Below, piece by piece: positions 2,567 through 56,513 of a DNA stretch of 64,000 nt. Within the stretch, counting starts at the first letter, position 1. The number at the start of each line of letters is the position of its first letter. The stretch spans positions 5,113 through 69,112 of the forward strand of contig CAYJXA010000002.1 in NCBI GenBank assembly GCA_964373955.1, read 5' to 3'. The notes under the pieces were generated by a model that searched no databases, had not been told where the DNA came from, and worked only from the letters and a program-made list of their open reading frames with translations. The position numbers and the translations under genes were made by a program. This DNA is from an uncultured Methanosarcinales archaeon (GTDB lineage Archaea > Nanobdellota > Nanobdellia > Woesearchaeales > GW2011-AR9).

Positions 2567-3919
2567 CTACATCCCCATCATTCCTTTCGGCAGCTTCCCA
2601 CCCATCTTTTTCATGAGTTTGTTAATATCCTGCTCCCCTTTCATCATTTTCATTAACTTCTTCGATTGCCGGTACTGCTTCAATAATTCTCGGATCTCTG
2701 CTACCTTTATGCCAGAACCAGCGGCAATCCGGTCAATCCTGTCCGCAGAAATGATATCGGGATCTTCTAATTCTTCTCGGGTCATGCTATCCATGGCAAT
2801 TTTCCATTTTTCTAATTTGCCTTCCTGCACTTCTAACATTTCCTTCGGTAATTTCAGTGATCCCATCCCCGGAATCATTTCCATAATCTTGCCAAAGGAA
2901 CCCATTTTTTTCAGCGATTTCATTTGCTGATAGAGATCAACGAGACTAAAATCGCCTTTCAAGAACTTATCCTGCATATCCTTCGCTTGTTCTTCAGAAA
3001 TCACTTCTTTCGCTTTCTCAAGTAAAGACTCTAAATCACCCATCCCAATTAATCTTCCCACAAATCGCTGGGGATGGAATAATTCAAAGTCGTCAACTTT
3101 TTCGCCCACGCCAATAAAAGTGATCGGTGCTTTGGTAACTGCACATGCAGACAACGCTCCTCCCCCCTTCGCTGTTCCTTCCAATTTGGTAACGATAACG
3201 CCAGTAACATGACAAGTGTCATGGAAAGCTTGAGCCTGTTTCTGTGCTGCTTGTCCAATATCAGCAGAAATAACCAACAATCGTTCATCCGGAGCGATGG
3301 CAGCATGCAATTGATTTAACTCTGCGATTAGTTCTTCGGAAAGAGCATCCCTTCCCGCGGTGTCAACGATCACCACATCATACTCTTTCAGTTTTCCCTC
3401 AAAAGCATGGTAAATAGTAACCGGGTCTTTTTCCCTTTTGATGCCAAAGAAATCAACGCCAATTGATGCAGCAATTTGTTCCAATTGATCATACGCCGCT
3501 GGCCGCCAAGTGTCGGTTTGCATGACCGCTACTTTATACCCCCGCTTTTTGTAGAATTTGGCAAGTTTTCCAGCAGTAGTTGTTTTTCCTGAGCCAAATA
3601 ATCCCACCAACATTATTTGCGTAGGTTTTTTCGTTATTTTAATTTCATGAGCTTCCTTCCCTAAGAAGGTGGTTAATTCCTCATATACAATCTTAATAAG
3701 CTGTTCTCGTTTGGTTATGCCCGGAGGAGCTTTTTCCTTAGCCCGCTCTTTAATCTTACTGCTCAGATCAAAGACGAGTTGTACATTAGTATCGGATTGC
3801 AGAAGAGCTCGCTGGATGTCTTTCACGAGCTCATTGATGAGTTTCTCATCCACAAAGACGGATTGGGTTATCTTGCTGAGCGTATTCTTCAGGGATTCCC
3901 CTAATTTTTCCAAGACCAT
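2567..3919 (-). CDS. srp54: signal recognition particle protein SRP54
   Basis: GTPase motifs GLFGSGKTTTAGKLA, DTAGR and TKLEGTAKGGGALS, plus a Met-rich C-terminal M domain (KKLMKMMKG...GMMGM). Confidence 0.95.
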   Translation of the reverse strand: MVLEKLGESLKNTLSKITQSVFVDEKLINELVKDIQRALLQSDTNVQLVFDLSSKIKERAKEKAPPGITKREQLIKIVYEELTTFLGKEAHEIKITKKPTQIMLVGLFGSGKTTTAGKLAKFYKKRGYKVAVMQTDTWRPAAYDQLEQIAASIGVDFFGIKREKDPVTIYHAFEGKLKEYDVVIVDTAGRDALSEELIAELNQLHAAIAPDERLLVISADIGQAAQKQAQAFHDTCHVTGVIVTKLEGTAKGGGALSACAVTKAPITFIGVGEKVDDFELFHPQRFVGRLIGMGDLESLLEKAKEVISEEQAKDMQDKFLKGDFSLVDLYQQMKSLKKMGSFGKIMEMIPGMGSLKLPKEMLEVQEGKLEKWKIAMDSMTREELEDPDIISADRIDRIAAGSGIKVAEIRELLKQYRQSKKLMKMMKGEQDINKLMKKMGGKLPKGMMGM

Positions 3920-3981: not shown

Positions 3982-4494
3982 TCATCTTCCCCTATGCGCC
4001 ATGGACTTTCCAGGGTTGTAAAAGAACCAATCCTCTTTCGTAATAGGATGAAAGTAATCGGCTTCTTCTATCAACATTTTAGCGGTTGTTTCTTGGACTG
4101 CAGCAATCTCCACTCTTACTCCTTCAGACTTTAGATGCTTAACTAGGTCGATATAATCAGAATCCCCGGACATGATGATGATCGTATCTACCTTTGGAGC
4201 TAATTGCGTCGCTTTGATGGAAAGCGGAATATCTGCTGATTTATGGCATGGAACGACAGAACCGTAATATTGCTGGTGCAATCGTTCCGCTAGCTTGGAG
4301 GAAATATTCTGCCCTTCTCGAAAATAGATTAAGCGATTTAAGCCTCTTCCATTCAAGAGCTTGGGGATAAGTTTGTCAAAATTAACCATAGTATTGGTAG
4401 ATTTACTCTGCTCGTGAATGCTTCGTTCAATATTATTCCCATCGCAGAGAATTGCTACAGATTGCGTAACCAGAATGCTTTTGTCGGTCGTCAT
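3982..4494 (-). CDS. NYN/LabA-like (PIN-related) domain protein
   Basis: ILCDGNNI...IIIMSGDSDYIDLVKHLKSEGVRVEI matches the NYN (DUF88/LabA) signature. Confidence 0.7.
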   Translation of the reverse strand: MTTDKSILVTQSVAILCDGNNIERSIHEQSKSTNTMVNFDKLIPKLLNGRGLNRLIYFREGQNISSKLAERLHQQYYGSVVPCHKSADIPLSIKATQLAPKVDTIIIMSGDSDYIDLVKHLKSEGVRVEIAAVQETTAKMLIEEADYFHPITKEDWFFYNPGKSMAHRGR

Positions 4495-4521: not shown

Positions 4522-4715
4522 TGAGCCTGCCCGGACTTTCGTTCAAGTACACTACTCAGCTTATATCGTGGGGTCGAGTGTCACGAGCGCCCCACTTGAA
4601 TACGACTCGCCTAGTGTAACTGGCGTTCGAACCGGGGTTTAGGGGTTTCCACTTCTTCTAACCGAAGCCCCTCGTCCTCACTGGCATTATCGTATCCAGG
4701 CTAGACTACAGGCCC
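4522..4715 (-). tRNA. tRNA-Arg(UCG) with three apparent introns (D-loop, 37/38, T-loop)
   Basis: Hand fold of the reverse complement gives GGGCCUG UA GUCU AGCCUGGAUA [15 nt, 4692-4678] GGAC G AGGGG CUUCGG [15 nt, 4661-4647] A CCCCU AAAC CCCGG UUCGAA [about 90 nt, 4625-4536] U CCGGG CAGGCUC A. The mature form is 74 nt with all four stems paired (one G2-U71 pair). A TATA-like ATTTATAAAT lies upstream. Confidence 0.7.
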
Positions 4716-4850
4716 ATATTCCACTTGAACGGTTCAACGAGATTTATAAATCTACCTACATTTTCTTTCAGAATATAAATGGTGTAACCAACTTTCTATT
4801 TTGGATAGAGAGAAACCTTAATAAAAGCCAATAGTATCTCTCTCAATGAA

Positions 4851-12024: not shown

Positions 12025-12158
12025 TGGAGCCAGTGGGATTTGAACCCACGACGTCATGGTATCTTCGTCAACAAAATTTGTCAACACTTCAGCCATGTGT
12101 TCTTTCCTGCCTGCAGGAAACTGAGTTTTCTGCATGTCCCAGTCTGAACTATGGCTCC
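12025..12158 (-). tRNA. tRNA-Phe(GAA) with two apparent introns (D-loop, 37/38)
   Basis: Hand fold of the reverse complement gives GGAGCCA UA GUUC AGACUGGGA [34 nt, 12136-12103] GAAC A CAUGG CUGAAG [26 nt, 12086-12061] A CCAUG ACGUC GUGGG UUCAAAU CCCAC UGGCUCC A. A TATA-like ATATTTATAAAG lies about 30 nt upstream. Confidence 0.75.
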
Positions 12159-18094: not shown

Positions 18095-19237
18095 ATGTCA
18101 CAAAAATTTCAATTTACCATCATTCATCGAGATAAGCACACCAAAGCACGCACTGGAATTCTTAATACTCCCCATGGGGAAATTCATACTCCCGCTTTCA
18201 TTCCCGTTGCTACTCAAGCAGCGATCAAAGGACTTTCCCCTGCACAGATGCAAGAAATTGGTTTTGATGCACTCTTATGCAATACGTATCATCTCTATCT
18301 CCGTCCAGGTGAGAAAATAGTAAAAAAGCTGGGTGAACTACATTCTTTCATGGGATGGAAGAAGCCCATCTTTACTGATTCGGGCGGATTTCAGGTATTC
18401 AGCCTGAATGAGGGTATGTGTACAGTTAATGATGATTGTGTTGAATTTAAGTCCCATATTGACCAATCAAAACATATTTTTACCTCGGAGAAATCAATGC
18501 AGATTCAGCGTGCTTTGGGAGCAGATATTATCTTTGCCTTTGATGAATGTTTGGATATTAATGCCGATTACGAAACGACCAAGAAATCTTTATCCCGAAC
18601 ACACGCATGGGCTCTCCGCAGTTTGAAGGCGTTTACTGCCTTAAACAAAGATAAAAAGCAGGCTTTGTATGGGATTGTGCAAGGGGGAAGGTTTAAAGAT
18701 TTGCGGGAAGAGAGTGCAAAATTCATTGCGTCGCTTCCCTTTGATGGCATTGGCATTGGCAGTGTTTTTGGTGACCCTAAAGATGAAAGTCAAAAACTTA
18801 TCCAGCATACGATGAAATTTCTCCCGGAAGAAAAAGCCAAGCATCTGCTGGGGATAGGGGGAGTGGACGATTTATTTGCCTATGTTGAGATGGGGCTGGA
18901 TACCTTTGATTGTGTCCTGCCTACAAGATTGGCCCGGGTGGGGTACATCTTTATTCATCCTGAGTCCGGAGGAAAAATAAGCAATAAATTTCGCTATCGG
19001 ATTTTGAATTCCAAATTCAAAGAAGACAAACGTCCTTTAGATATAAATTGCCAATGTTATACTTGCACCAATTTTTCTCGTGCTTACCTCCGCCATTTGT
19101 TTAAAGCAGAAGAATTGTTGGCGTATACATTAGCTACGTATCATAACTTATGGTTCTTTCGGAAATTGATGGAAGAGATAAGGGAGAGTATTGAGAAGGA
19201 TGAGTTCAAGAAGTTAAAGAAGAAGTGGGTACGATAG
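18095..19237 (+). CDS. tgt: tRNA-guanine transglycosylase, bacterial-type length (380 aa)
   Basis: DSGGFQVFSL, GIGSVFG and the zinc site CQCYTCTNFSRAYLRHL. Confidence 0.9.
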   Translation: MSQKFQFTIIHRDKHTKARTGILNTPHGEIHTPAFIPVATQAAIKGLSPAQMQEIGFDALLCNTYHLYLRPGEKIVKKLGELHSFMGWKKPIFTDSGGFQVFSLNEGMCTVNDDCVEFKSHIDQSKHIFTSEKSMQIQRALGADIIFAFDECLDINADYETTKKSLSRTHAWALRSLKAFTALNKDKKQALYGIVQGGRFKDLREESAKFIASLPFDGIGIGSVFGDPKDESQKLIQHTMKFLPEEKAKHLLGIGGVDDLFAYVEMGLDTFDCVLPTRLARVGYIFIHPESGGKISNKFRYRILNSKFKEDKRPLDINCQCYTCTNFSRAYLRHLFKAEELLAYTLATYHNLWFFRKLMEEIRESIEKDEFKKLKKKWVR

Positions 19238-35662: not shown

Positions 35663-36085
35663 TCAGGGCGTTATTAAGTAATCAAGCGGATTTCCATACT
35701 GTTTACCTAATTCTTCATAATATTTTCTCCATTCAGGATCAAATTGAAAATGAAGTTCAACTGGTTTTTCTTTTCTCATAGCAATGTTTGCTTCTTGCAA
35801 CGTACCATGGGATATCCCAAAAATCTAAAATCTATCAGGTATCTCAACTGTGCGAAAACAAAATTCCATTGCTTTTTCTCTTCCAATTGCTGGATTACCT
35901 TCAAATCGTTTATATGAGAAAGCTTGAAATGGATGAAAAGGAGCAAGGCCGCGCTCAGTTACATAGTCCATAATTTCTTCAATCTTATCAACAAGGCGTG
36001 AAGGTGTCGCACAATAAATTAATTCTGTCATCCTGTCGGCATATACGAAAGTTCTTATTAAAAATTGTTGTATCATAAACGTCAA
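35663..36085 (-). pseudogene. hypothetical gene interrupted by one in-frame TAG
   Basis: The ORF-track protein 35825..36085 ends ...EIPDRF at TAG 35825-35827. The same frame continues IFGISHGTLQEANIAMRKEKPVELHFQFDPEWRKYYEELGKQYGNPLDYLITP to TGA 35663-35665. Confidence 0.5.
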
Positions 36086-36099
36086 GTCTGCGTTTTGGT

Positions 36100-43623: not shown

Positions 43624-44472
43624 ATGAACATCACTGAACTCATAACCAAAACTGGGCTGCGACAGGGCCTGAGCAGGAATACCCTCAAAACATACTGTTA
43701 TTGCGTGGAAAGATTTTTTCGAATTTGCCGCAAAAATCCCTATGCACTCCGTAAGCAGGACCTTCTGGAGTATATGGACAAACTCATTGAACATAATGCC
43801 CCCGGAAATACTGTAAATGTGCAAATCAATGCATTAAAATTCTTTTACGAACAAGTATTGCATCGCCGACTTACAATTAATCTTCCCATCCAGAAAGTTC
43901 CAAAACGGTTGCCTTATTTTCTGCAGAAAGAACAAGTAATGCTCATGTTGCATCATATTGACAATCCCAAGCACCAGTTGATGATTGCATTATTATATGG
44001 CACTGGCATGCGGGTAAGCGAATTAACTCATCTGAGAGTGCAAGATTTTGTATTCTCTTCCAATTATGGCTGGGTAAGGCAGGGTAAAGGAAAGAAAGAC
44101 CGTTTGTTTATTATTCCTGAGAAATTAAAAGAAAAATTGCAGGAGTATATTATCAGCAACAATTTATCTGCGGAAGATTGGCTCTTCCTTGGTCGGGAGA
44201 ATAATCATTATTCCGATCAGAGTGTGCGTGAGATTCTCAAAAATGCAAAGAAAAAAGCCCGCTTGCAGCAACATGTCTACCCCCATATGCTCCGGCATTC
44301 CTTTGCTACTCACTTCATAGAGAATGGGAACTCCGTGCTTGAGCTTCAGCCCTTGCTGGGGCACAGTAAAATTGAAACAACAATGGTCTATTTGCACTGC
44401 GCCGCACCAAAATTATTGAATTTGAAAAGCCCCCTAGATTCCCTCCCCGAAACCACTCCACAATTCTTATAA
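43624..44472 (+). CDS. tyrosine recombinase, IntI/XerD-like (no IntI-specific insertion evident)
   Basis: [12 protein letters not shown] (Arg I), [10 protein letters not shown] (His-x-x-Arg), [14 protein letters not shown] (catalytic Tyr) and the C-terminal LKSPLDSL tail. Sits 42 nt downstream of the tRNA gene. Confidence 0.85.
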   Translation: [282 protein letters not shown]

Positions 44473-47432: not shown

Positions 47433-47533
47433 AGCGGGGTAGGGAAGCTAGGAGTACCCGATGGGCTCATACCATTAGGATAAATCTAGTGCAAGAAACC
47501 CATAGATCGGTGGTTCAAATCCACCCCCCGCTA
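47433..47533 (+). tRNA. initiator tRNA-Met(CAU) with a canonical 37/38 intron (26 nt)
   Basis: AGCGGGG UA GGGA AGCUAGGAGU ACCC G AUGGG CUCAUA [47472-47497] A CCCAU AGAUC GGUGG UUCAAAU CCACC CCCCGCU A. A1:U72 and the GGG/CCC anticodon stem are archaeal initiator hallmarks. Confidence 0.85.
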
Positions 47534-52100: not shown

Positions 52101-52538
52101 TCAAATATCGATCAACACTTGCGCTTTCCAGCCATCTTTGACTTTTTCTACTTTAAATTCGTGCATGGTAATGGCTTTGACATCCACTTTGGGATCATGT
52201 CGAGTGAAATCAATTTTTTCTCCCGAGGCAAAACAGGCTAACGTGTATTTCCCCTGTTCTTCTTTGATGTCCATCTCAAAAGAGGTAAAGACTAATTGTT
52301 TATAATCTTTAAAGAATAATAATTCATCCAGAAAATCGAAGAGCAAGTTTTCAATTTTGCTTGCTTCCCCCAGGATCTTAACTTTCTCCTTCGCTTTTAC
52401 TTTGGTTACATCCACCATGGTTTCTTCTACTGCTAAAGCGCACTCGTTAAAGAGCGCTGGTAATGTATCTGCTTTCGCTACGAAAAACACATCCGCAGTA
52501 TGATCCAGGAATTTGTGGAAGGGTTTCATTTTAAGCAT
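52101..52538 (-). CDS. archease
   Basis: FLDHTADVFFVAKADTLPALFNECALA, with a size of about 145 aa from the internal Met. The ORF track extends to 52616, overlapping the DedA gene. Confidence 0.8.
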   Translation of the reverse strand: MLKMKPFHKFLDHTADVFFVAKADTLPALFNECALAVEETMVDVTKVKAKEKVKILGEASKIENLLFDFLDELLFFKDYKQLVFTSFEMDIKEEQGKYTLACFASGEKIDFTRHDPKVDVKAITMHEFKVEKVKDGWKAQVLIDI

Positions 52539-52549
52539 AGAGAAGGGCG

Positions 52550-53200
52550 TTAGATTAAATACTTTATGGCTAAATATCCCAGTACCATCAATACAAACAA
52601 TCCCAGGCTTAACCAATTGAAATACTTGTCAATAAATACTTTAACCCGTTCACCAAAGAAATACGTTAACACTGCGATGGCAAAAAATCGTAATCCCCTG
52701 CCCAGAATAGAAGCAGTTATCAAAGGGAATAAACCTACTTGCCACACTCCGGCAGCGATGGTGAAGACTTTATACGGAATGGGAGTTAAAGCCGCAGCAA
52801 AAATAGCCAGGAAAGCATTCTCTTTGAACATTGCTCCCACCAATACAAATTGCTGTTCATAGCCTAAGCTTTGGATAATCAACCGACCTACACTTTCAAA
52901 GAGAAAAAGGCCAATAAAATATCCCAGAATACCGCCCAGGACAGAAAAACATAAAGCAATACATGCATACCAAAAAGACCGCTTTGGTTTTGAGATAGAG
53001 AGTGCAATTTGCAACACATCCGGCGGGATGGGAAAGAATGAAGATTCAATAAATGCCAATACGGCTAAGGCATAAGCACCATATGTTGATTCCGCCCAAG
53101 ATAGAACCCAATCGTATAACCTTTTGAGAAGGCCAAACGAGTAGAAGTGAAGTCCCTGCACTATGCGATGATCTTTTAGCTGGGTGATCTTCTCTTTCAT
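52550..53200 (-). CDS. DedA/YqaA (SNARE-associated) family membrane protein
   Basis: ESSFFPIPPDVLQ and LTPIPYKVFTIAAG motifs. Confidence 0.8.
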   Translation of the reverse strand: MKEKITQLKDHRIVQGLHFYSFGLLKRLYDWVLSWAESTYGAYALAVLAFIESSFFPIPPDVLQIALSISKPKRSFWYACIALCFSVLGGILGYFIGLFLFESVGRLIIQSLGYEQQFVLVGAMFKENAFLAIFAAALTPIPYKVFTIAAGVWQVGLFPLITASILGRGLRFFAIAVLTYFFGERVKVFIDKYFNWLSLGLFVLMVLGYLAIKYLI

Positions 53201-54501: not shown

Positions 54502-56250
54502 TCACTCTACGATCGCCTTAATCCTTCTCACTCCTGCTGCACAGGCTTCTTCTTTCATAATTTTAAAATGGCCAATTTCAGCAGTGTGGTCCACATGAGG
54601 CCCGCCGCAGAATTCTTTGGAATAATCGCCGACAAAATAAACCGACACTATCTCCGGGTACTTCTGTCCAAATTCTTTTTCCGCACCTAATTTCTCTGCT
54701 TCATCTCGTTTCATTTCTTTACGTATTACTTTCAAATCCATTCGTATTACCCGATTGACTTCATCTTCTACTTTTTTTACTTCTTCAGGAGTTAATTTTC
54801 GTTCAAAGCTGAAATCAAATCTCAATCGCTCTGGAGTAATGTTACTTCCCCGCTGATGGATCGCTGGAGAGATTACTTTTCGCAAGGCTTCATTTAATAG
54901 ATGCGTCGCAGTATGCATTCGTATAACCTCTGGAGAAGCGTCGGCTAATCCTCCTTTAAACTTTTTCTCCGCTCCTACCCGAGATAATTCTTTGTGTTTT
55001 TCATATTCTGAGAGGAATCCTTTTACTTCAACTTTAATTCCTTTCTCTGCAGCCAGTTCTTCTGTCATCTCTAGCGGAAAACCATAACTTTGAAACAAGA
55101 GGAAAGCATCTACGCCGGAAATGTTGCTTTGATTGGCCAAGCGTTCAAATTCTTTTAAACCATGCTCCAGAGTTTTCTCGAATTTCTCTTCTTCTTTTTG
55201 CAGCTCGCTATAACTCTGCTCTTTATTCTTCTCTAATTCTGGATATAACTCCTGATACTCATTAATAACCACTTTTGCTAATTCTACAGTGAAAAGCGTT
55301 TTCACTCCAATCATTTTTCCATACCGAACTATTCGGCGGATGAGACGACGTAAAATATACCCCCTATCCACGTTAGAAGGCAGTACGGCATTTTCATCTC
55401 CAAGAATAAAGACTGCTGCTCGGATATGATCTGCAATGATTCTCATGGAGCGAGTTTCCTGGGCATAGCTTTTGCCAGAAATTTGTTCTATTTTTTGAAT
55501 AACCGGCAAGAACAGATCTGTTTCATATGCACTTTTTCTGCCATTCAATACTGCTAACGTTCTTTCTAATCCCATTCCCGTGTCTACATTTTTTTTCGTG
55601 AGGGGAACAACAGAACCGTCTTCTTTTTTATTATACGCCATAAATACATCATTCCAAATTTCTACCCACTGATTATCTTCTGGATCAAAACAGGCAGGAG
55701 GATTACCTTCCCCTTTCCAATAGAACATTTCAGTGCTTGGTCCGCAAGGGCCAGTCTCACCAGCAATCCAAAAATTATCTTTACCAAGGAAGGCGATTCT
55801 CTCTTCAGGAATTCCCGAACTCCGCCAGAGAGCGTAGGATTCCTCATCCCTAGGAACGGATTTATCTCCTTGGTACACGGTTACTGCCAACTTTTTCAGA
55901 GGAATATTTAACCATTTCTTGCCAGTTAAAAACTCAAAACTCCAGGTGATCGCTTCTTTCTTGAAATAATCGCCGAGGCTCCAATTGCCTAACATTTGAA
56001 AGAAGGTATGGTGAGTATTATCACCAATATTCTCAAAGTCTACTGTGCGTAGACATTTTTGGACATTTGCTAAGCGCTTGCCTAGGGGATGGGGAGTTCC
56101 CATCAGATAAGGGACTAAAGGTTGCATGCCCGCGGTATTGAATAATACGGAAGCATCATTGGCTGGGATTAACGAAGCGGAGGGAATGATGGCATGCTGT
56201 TTACTCTTGAAGAAATCAAGGTATTTTTGGATGAGTTGTTTGGCGTTCAT
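54502..56250 (-). CDS. alaS: alanyl-tRNA synthetase, bacterial-type catalytic and editing domains, no C-Ala domain (582 aa)
   Basis: FNTAGMQP, HHTFFQMLGNWSLGDYFK and the editing-site HTATHLLNEAL...CGGPHV. The protein ends shortly after the editing domain. Confidence 0.9.
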   Translation of the reverse strand: MNAKQLIQKYLDFFKSKQHAIIPSASLIPANDASVLFNTAGMQPLVPYLMGTPHPLGKRLANVQKCLRTVDFENIGDNTHHTFFQMLGNWSLGDYFKKEAITWSFEFLTGKKWLNIPLKKLAVTVYQGDKSVPRDEESYALWRSSGIPEERIAFLGKDNFWIAGETGPCGPSTEMFYWKGEGNPPACFDPEDNQWVEIWNDVFMAYNKKEDGSVVPLTKKNVDTGMGLERTLAVLNGRKSAYETDLFLPVIQKIEQISGKSYAQETRSMRIIADHIRAAVFILGDENAVLPSNVDRGYILRRLIRRIVRYGKMIGVKTLFTVELAKVVINEYQELYPELEKNKEQSYSELQKEEEKFEKTLEHGLKEFERLANQSNISGVDAFLLFQSYGFPLEMTEELAAEKGIKVEVKGFLSEYEKHKELSRVGAEKKFKGGLADASPEVIRMHTATHLLNEALRKVISPAIHQRGSNITPERLRFDFSFERKLTPEEVKKVEDEVNRVIRMDLKVIRKEMKRDEAEKLGAEKEFGQKYPEIVSVYFVGDYSKEFCGGPHVDHTAEIGHFKIMKEEACAAGVRRIKAIVE

Positions 56251-56306: not shown

Positions 56307-56450
56307 GGGCCTGTAGTCAAACGGCTACGATACATCGTTCGCAACGATGAGGTCCGGGTTCGACACAGATCTCCCAGATCTGGTAGGGGGATTCGCGGTC
56401 ACTGCGTTCCCGCTCATACATTTGGGAATACGAAAATCCCGGCAGGTCCA
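56307..56450 (+). tRNA. tRNA-Ala(CGC) with a T-loop intron (about 72 nt)
   Basis: GGGCCUG UA GUCA AACGGCUA CGAU A CAUCG UUCGCAA CGAUG AGGU CCGGG UUCGA [56364-56435] AU CCCGG CAGGUCC A. The G3:U70 identity pair is present. The intron holds the hairpin CAGATCT-CCC-AGATCTG. Confidence 0.8.
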
Positions 56451-56513
56451 TAAACGAAGTGCATGGATCCTGACGGCTCAAAGGGCGCACCCTTTGTTTG
56501 CCGGCAGGTCCAT
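56439..56513 (+). repeat. 13-nt exact direct repeat of the tRNA-Ala 3' end
   Basis: CCGGCAGGTCCAT occurs at 56439-56451 and again at 56501-56513. The hairpin CAAAGGG-CGCA-CCCTTTG (56479-56496) lies between the copies, and a T6 run follows the second copy. Confidence 0.85.

Follow-up and report, generated by a model that had tools for sequence, protein, structure and literature searches.

A predicted three-intron tRNA-Arg(UCG) gene of a Woesearchaeote and a family of T-loop introns at position 59/60 of several tRNAs

Multiple-intron tRNA genes have been described in the Thermoproteales (Sugahara et al. 2008, as summarised in PMC4033280 and PMC8450103), where tRNA genes carry 0.84 introns on average; the record is that of Pyrobaculum calidifontis, with 71 introns in 46 genes, or 1.54 per gene (PMC8450103). 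This order is also already known for tri-intron tRNAs, for intron sites outside the canonical one, 59/60 among them, and for intron families that different tRNAs share (PMC4033280, PMC8450103). For the 'transposition' of tRNA introns within it, PMC4033280 cites Fujishima et al. 2010, and Sugahara 2012 (PMC3293823) provides a further precedent for intron mobility. In DPANN archaea, raised tRNA gene disruption has been reported together with multi-intron tRNAs and incomplete tRNA sets, and lineages with many disrupted tRNAs have an alpha4-type splicing endonuclease (EndA) with an L3 loop (Kaneta et al. 2018, PMC5829648). That study concerns the same superphylum as the present work and includes one Woesearchaeota MAG; it gives genome-level proportions only. 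We found in the searched literature no description of the tri-intron Arg gene, of Woesearchaeota ortholog intron turnover, or of the 59/60 intron families.

The DNA examined is a single stretch of 64 kb, which we refer to as the window. Its SRP54 gene (2567-3919, minus strand) encodes a protein with 86-87% identity to those of MAGs labelled Woesearchaeota, Nanoarchaeota or Nanoarchaeia and, because of this identity and of the A1-U72 pair of the initiator tRNA, we take the host to be a DPANN archaeon; as judged from sequence it is a Woesearchaeote, outside the Thermoproteales and Crenarchaeota. An earlier note on this DNA had looked mainly to the Thermoproteales for comparison: multi-intron precedents are indeed found there, but the SRP54 identity places the present host elsewhere. 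Several MAGs with SRP54 80-87% identical are labelled 'uncultured Methanosarcinales archaeon' or as CPR (Staskawiczbacteria, Nomurabacteria), and these are probably mislabelled or mis-binned Woesearchaeota contigs.

The features shared with the Thermoproteales are up to three bulge-helix-bulge (BHB) introns per tRNA, the use of D-loop and 59/60 sites, relaxed hBH motifs and high intron density. The host, however, is a mesophile-type, low-GC (~40%) DPANN Woesearchaeote and no crenarchaeote, and the local density of 1.8 introns per gene lies above the record of 1.54, in a sample of five genes only.

The tRNA-Arg(UCG) gene and its splice sites

The gene is read on the minus strand from 4715 to 4522 (GGGCCTG...CAGGCTCA); the plus-strand reading of the locus was rejected, as it yields nothing tRNA-like. 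In the following lines, and throughout, a slash within a three-base bulge marks the cut.

4522..4715, minus strand: whole tRNA-Arg(UCG) gene, 194 nt, with G1 at 4715, discriminator A73 at 4522 and no encoded CCA
4694..4715, minus strand: exon 1, acceptor 5' strand, D-stem 5' strand and D loop to U20a, GGGCCTGTAGTCTAGCCTGGAT
4679..4693, minus strand: intron 1, 15 nt, D loop, site 20a/21; central helix CUGG/CCAG, bulges AU/A and UG/A
4662..4678, minus strand: exon 2, A21, D-stem 3' strand, G26, anticodon-stem 5' strand and C32-G37 with anticodon UCG
4647..4661, minus strand: intron 2, 15 nt, canonical site 37/38, TTAGAAGAAGTGGAA; relaxed BHB, CUUC/GUGG with 3/4 pairs
4626..4646, minus strand: exon 3, A38, anticodon-stem 3' strand, 4-nt variable loop, T-stem 5' strand and T loop U54-A59
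4536..4625, minus strand: intron 3, 90 nt, T loop, site 59/60; hBH, helix UUCG/CGAA on the 5-bp T stem, bulges AA/C and AG/U
4522..4535, minus strand: exon 4, U60, T-stem 3' strand, acceptor 3' strand and A73
4743..4750, minus strand: candidate TATA-box-like element TTTATAAA, read from the sequence, ending 27 nt upstream of G1

Counted along the gene, the exons occupy positions 1-22, 38-54, 70-90 and 181-194, and the introns positions 23-37, 55-69 and 91-180. The joined exons give a product of 74 nt, to which ARAGORN assigns the identity tRNA-Arg(tcg). This product has an acceptor stem of 7 bp with a G2-U71 pair, a D arm with a 4-bp stem (GUCU/GGAC) and the D loop AGCCUGGAUA, an anticodon arm with a 5-bp stem (AGGGG/CCCCU) and the loop CUUCGGA (anticodon UCG, G37), a variable loop of 4 nt, and a T arm with a 5-bp stem (CCCGG/CCGGG) and the loop UUCGAAU. 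The earlier note had held that three introns must be removed, 15 nt from the D loop, 15 nt at 37/38 and about 90 nt from the T loop; in-silico splicing, BHB geometry at the D-loop and T-loop junctions and ortholog comparison agree on this, and place the introns at 4693-4679, 4661-4647 and 4625-4536. On these comparisons we consider it confirmed, at the level of sequence, that 4715 to 4522 is a real tRNA-Arg(UCG) gene with three introns.

In its unspliced form, the gene escapes standard searches. ARAGORN in default mode reported no tRNA in the whole window and left the locus uncalled in intron mode, and the Rfam tRNA model (RF00005, gathering threshold 29 bits) had no match to the unspliced locus even at E<=10. 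Intron-poor foldings, which the earlier note had put forward as an outcome that would count against it, were looked for, and none was obtained from ARAGORN in canonical-intron mode or from the Rfam tRNA model at E<=10. Group I and group II ribozyme models likewise had no Rfam match at E<=10 between 4400 and 4850.

We enumerated the BHB registers at each site; a register consists of a 4-bp helix H with a 3-nt bulge on either side, each bulge being cut after its second base. The D-loop intron forms CUGG[AU/A]...CCAG[UG/A], in which H is complete (4/4) and is flanked by short helices on both sides (h 1, h' 2). The T-loop intron forms UUCG[AA/C]...CGAA[AG/U], also with H 4/4; here h comprises the 5 bp of the T stem and h' is 0, so that the 5' bulge has no directly abutting inner helix and the motif is of the hBH type. 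The intron at 37/38 forms CUUC[GG/U]...GUGG[AA/A], with H 3/4 owing to a U-U mismatch, and stacks on the 5-bp anticodon stem.

The 37/38 intron departs from the canonical archaeal BHB at this position. In orthologs with an intron at 37/38, CUUC pairs with GAAG and is accompanied by NN/A bulges, giving a canonical central helix between two 3-nt bulges. GAAG is also present in the window gene and pairs with CUUC, but its distance from the 3' splice site is 3 nt too great, and a 3' bulge of 6 nt would result if GAAG pairs. Because GAAG is out of register, CUUC/GUGG (3/4) is the best BHB register at this junction and the only one that fits. Thus, the CUUC/GAAG helix proposed in the earlier note does pair, and is canonical in the orthologs, but in the window gene it fails to put both cut sites within 3-nt bulges. 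Alternative cuts at 36/37, at 38/39 or two bases after GAAG were rejected, as they alter position 38 or yield a 10-nt anticodon loop. We kept the site at 37/38 because all orthologs with an anticodon-loop intron are cut there according to curated junctions, with the exception of L046 (35/36).

The centroid fold of the precursor recovers all four tRNA stems together with the CUGG/CCAG and UUCG/CGAA helices, and pairs UUC with GAA at the 37/38 intron. The minimum free energy of the precursor is unremarkable (z = -0.99).

The element TTTATAAA at 4743..4750 is a candidate for the archaeal promoter of tRNA-Arg. Between it and the gene, the 5' leader contains TTCAAGTGG (4721-4729, minus strand, 6 nt upstream of G1); it is identical to 9 nt within the conserved core of the T-loop intron of this gene, and orthologous leaders lack it.

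Intron content of orthologous genes

Orthologs of the tRNA-Arg(UCG) gene were found in the SRP54 loci of related MAGs, upstream of an NYN-domain gene that is followed by SRP54. They carry between zero and three introns, at sites 19/20, 20a/21, 21/22, 35/36, 37/38, 46/47, 53/54 and 59/60, with the following distribution (examples only for two introns).

No intron: L009 (72 nt), L075 (74 nt)
One intron: L002, L005, L007 and L028 (46/47); L010, L011, L034 and L085 (59/60)
Two introns: L033, L051, L057 and L078 (D loop and 37/38); L053 and L044 (37/38 and 59/60); L035 and L089 (46/47 and 59/60); L043 (46/47 and 53/54)
Three introns: the window gene, L004, L012, L041, L046, L015

Orthologs that lack a given intron read through the junctions predicted for the window gene. 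L053, which has no D-loop intron, reads exactly the predicted junction, CTGGATAGGAC, and its intron-free D arm is identical to exon 1 of the window gene; L057 and L078, which have no T-loop intron, read TTCGAAT as predicted. The D-loop site 20a/21 also holds homologous introns in L078 and L004.

All 22 spliced orthologs were called as tRNA-Arg(tcg) by ARAGORN, and the Rfam tRNA model gives 61.1 bits for L075 and 59.0 bits for L009, both of them intron-less. The spliced product of the window gene is identical at 72 of 74 positions to that of the two-intron ortholog L057, and a compensatory exchange of one anticodon-stem pair accounts for the whole difference. When 15 distinct spliced orthologs were aligned, pairing held in 99.4% of cloverleaf cells, and 10 of the 21 pairs show compensatory (double) changes; none of 500 shuffles matched the observed covariation, and sliding the partners collapses the pairing. 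A caveat is that the junctions in this alignment were chosen by the analyst, although the stems lie within the exons; the automatic dynamic-programming parse mis-split L033, L051, L048 and L023, which were re-parsed by hand where used. Support for the cloverleaf of the spliced orthologs far exceeds chance.

Other tRNA genes, splicing genes and neighbours in the window

Four further tRNA genes were parsed by hand, and their spliced sequences were then submitted to ARAGORN.

12025..12158, minus strand: tRNA-Phe(GAA), with a D-loop intron of ~31-33 nt whose junction is ambiguous and a 26-nt intron at 37/38
43405..43582, plus strand: class II tRNA-Leu(UAA), with a 62-nt intron within the 5' strand of the anticodon stem (~29-31) and a second one, of 32 nt, at 37/38
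47433..47533, plus strand: initiator tRNA-Met(CAU), with A1-U72 and a 26-nt intron at 37/38
56307..56450, plus strand: tRNA-Ala(CGC), with G3-U70 and a 72-nt intron at 59/60, UUCG[AC/A]...CGAA[AA/U]

No intron-less tRNA was detected within the 64-kb window, in line with the earlier note, in which every tRNA seen is disrupted (Phe twice, initiator Met once, Ala once in the T loop, and the class II tRNA, here Leu(UAA), at least once and in fact twice). The five genes contain nine introns, five of them non-canonical, where at least eight and at least four had been counted in that note. Rfam at its gathering threshold missed three of the five genes and ARAGORN in default mode missed all five.

The discriminator of tRNA-Leu(UAA) is G73; in tRNA-Leu it is usually A73. 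The 62-nt first intron of this gene contains two separate hairpins and might represent two nested or adjacent introns. A tyrosine recombinase gene (43624-44472, plus strand; Phage_integrase and SAM-like N domain, E=8e-40) begins 42 nt downstream of it, and a 6-kb low-GC block (~36000-42000, GC 0.30-0.34 versus ~0.41 elsewhere) lies just upstream of the tRNA-Leu and recombinase genes; this could be an integrated element or the XerA homolog. At the tRNA-Ala(CGC) gene, the last 12 nt (CCGGCAGGTCCA, 56439-56450) recur 62 nt downstream (56501-56512, plus strand), with the hairpin CAAAGGGCGCACCCTTTG between the two copies and a terminator-like T-run after the second copy only; in its sequence, this repeat looks like an insertion or recombination scar.

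The genes with a bearing on tRNA processing, or adjoining the tRNA genes, are as follows.

52101..52616, minus strand: archease homolog (PF01951, E=9e-39), the sole splicing-related gene found in the window
18095-19237, plus strand: tRNA-guanine transglycosylase of archaeosine or queuine type (PF01702)
54502-56250, minus strand: short alanyl-tRNA synthetase, divergently oriented next to tRNA-Ala
3982-4494, minus strand: NYN-domain gene (PIN-like nuclease fold) between tRNA-Arg and SRP54

The order tRNA-Arg, NYN, SRP54 is conserved across many related loci. Archease proteins are cofactors of the RtcB tRNA-splicing ligase; RtcB itself was not found in the window or in the related loci. EndA was absent from Pfam scans of 46 window ORFs and from a phmmer search of all ORFs of the window and of 90 loci, in which the query was an approximate M. 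jannaschii EndA sequence. The claim of the earlier note that introns at such sites require an alpha2-beta2 or epsilon2 EndA appears too narrow, because Kaneta et al. 2018 (PMC5829648) link tRNA disruption in DPANN to an alpha4 enzyme with an L3 loop.

The 90-nt T-loop intron and the reading of the locus

On sequence comparison, the 90-nt intron is a member of a conserved family at 59/60 of several tRNAs. A metagenome pattern scan and nhmmer recovered the family at this site in Arg-UCG, Ala-GGC, Ser-GCT and another class II tRNA, in copies that are 87-98% identical to one another, with more diverged copies in L039 and L041. The window copy is ~76-81% identical to the other copies, and differs from the consensus in the apical loop and the 3' half; over its first 45 nt it matches the T-loop intron of L035 at ~98% identity, as against 77% for the tRNA exons and just 45% for the SRP54 third codon positions of the same two genomes. 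The eight closest copies, spread over different genomes and different tRNAs, agree at every base of a 31-nt block. The consensus fold of the family is a long rod with conserved bulges, and in the core hairpin 5 of 7 stem positions show compensatory changes across 16 instances.

4566..4597, minus strand: core hairpin of intron 3, AAGTGGGGC...GACCCCACGA

The 3' end of the intron tracks the T loop of its host, with CGAA where the T loop has UUCG and UGAA where it has UUCA. Among candidate 59/60 introns with H of at least 3/4 in the examined loci, the pair of T-loop position 57 with its intron partner is G-C in 31 cases and A-T in 13, with 5 exceptions. The intron partner thus follows position 57, which constitutes direct covariation for the 59/60 BHB helix.

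The window holds no second copy of the 90-nt family, no Rfam family matched the intron, and two pattern scans of viral contigs gave no match. The core hairpin, on the other hand, is found outside tRNAs, again with no match in Rfam or in viral contigs: in several relatives it stands directly after the SRP54 stop codon and is followed by a duplicate of the last 30-55 nt of SRP54, and in L090 a 117-nt unit of this kind is repeated in tandem to give four copies. Two further intergenic contexts contain the hairpin as well. The loci with the hairpin and duplicated SRP54 ends are as follows.

L015, 2643-2807
L020, 2207-2398
L077, 7310-7538
L055, 1430-1680
L090, 1560-1950

Other 59/60 families are common to several tRNAs and genomes. 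Introns that start with (A/T)CAGATCTCCCA occur in the Ala gene of the window (56365-56436), in L018 and in L065, and introns that start with AGAGTCACTGCG occur in the Arg gene of L004 and in another tRNA of L010.

We consider the locus to be a functional Woesearchaeota tRNA-Arg(UCG) gene with three protein-spliced introns, of which the 90-nt intron is a copy of a family that has spread to 59/60 of several tRNAs, and give this reading a probability of roughly 0.85. Weighing against it are the imperfect junction at 37/38, the missing inner helix beside the 5' bulge of the T-loop intron, the ordinary folding energy of the precursor, and searches of the window and the related loci that turned up neither EndA nor RtcB. 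The 194-nt precursor would be transcribed, with a short leader and trailer, from the TATA-like promoter. At each intron, the flanking exon would pair with the intron 3' end to form a 4-bp helix with two 3-nt bulges, both of which EndA would cut; an RtcB-type ligase, aided by the archease encoded in the window, would then join the four exons into the 74-nt tRNA, with CCA added after ligation.

The presence of the 90-nt intron at this site in several tRNAs may have its answer in an element that is primarily selfish and mobile, as DNA or as RNA, that invades tRNA T loops and other sites, and that persists because it can be removed as a BHB intron. This proposal elaborates the reading above and does not replace it, and by analogy it would parallel the 'intron transposition' of the Thermoproteales; we hold it only tentatively. 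It accords with the copies of 87-98% mutual identity at one structural position of four tRNA species, and with the first 45 nt of the intron being far better conserved between the window and L035 than the tRNA exons or the SRP54 third codon positions. The occurrence of the core hairpin beside duplicated gene ends and in a tandem array, and the sharing of other 59/60 families among several tRNAs, point the same way. In the part of the record on Fujishima et al. 2010 that PMC4033280 conveys, and in Sugahara 2012 (PMC3293823), there are precedents. The transposition families cited from Fujishima et al. 2010 are likewise near-identical introns at equal structural positions of different tRNA species; they differ from the family here in lineage and in intron sequence, which is unrelated, and in that the core hairpin here is also found outside tRNA genes, beside duplicated gene ends. 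Against a selfish element stand the lack of a linked transposase or homing enzyme, the lack of target-site duplication at the tRNA sites, where the 3' end of the intron complements the T loop of each host rather than repeating it, the single copy in the 64-kb window and the lack of a match in viral contigs; moreover, an RNA function could instead explain the high conservation.

Such a function, in which the excised 90-nt intron acts as a stable, possibly circular small RNA or as a protein-binding RNA, is in our view improbable. The 31-nt block shared across genomes and tRNAs, the rod-like fold with its conserved bulges and the compensatory changes in the core stem all speak for it, but the apical loop is changed in the window copy, no Rfam family matched, and the window contains no site complementary to the intron. 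The latter observation also led us to rule out antisense control of SRP54 by the intron. Introns that carry C/D-box sRNAs, of the tRNA-Trp type, have the C box RUGAUGA and the D box CUGA. By inspection of the alignment, CUGA occurs in the window copy only and neither the C nor the D box is conserved between copies; no ACA box follows the hairpin, and C/D box, H/ACA and K-turn readings of the intron were rejected, as their motifs are not conserved.

Least of all do we expect a pseudogene or crippled copy, in which the 90-nt insert or the degenerate 37/38 junction blocks maturation and tRNA-Arg(UCG) comes from another gene: the BHB at 37/38 is imperfect, the window T-loop intron is more diverged than the other copies are from each other, and the visible genome is 64 kb, so that a second, intron-free tRNA-Arg(UCG) gene could lie elsewhere, but the four exons are intact and differ from those of L057 by a compensatory change, the central helices of the D-loop and T-loop BHBs are perfect, several genomes carry this intron at this site in tRNAs that are otherwise intact, and the position of the locus is conserved and accompanied by a TATA-like box.

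For the tRNA genes of Woesearchaeota, these results may mean that BHB introns are being gained and lost at present and that the 90-nt intron is a conserved, structured mobile element that colonises 59/60 of several tRNAs, with its hairpin also outside tRNAs beside duplicated gene ends, a view to which we give less than even credence. If true, the hairpin beside duplicated gene ends would tie intron gain to DNA-level insertion or recombination. As standard finders missed intron-bearing tRNAs of the window, DPANN genomes may look tRNA-poor partly for that reason, as was suspected by Kaneta et al. 2018 (PMC5829648). The series of orthologs with zero to three introns would offer a natural experiment on the rate of BHB intron gain and loss, and the conserved 59/60 family a handle on how introns spread and on the endonuclease architecture that tolerates them outside the Crenarchaeota.
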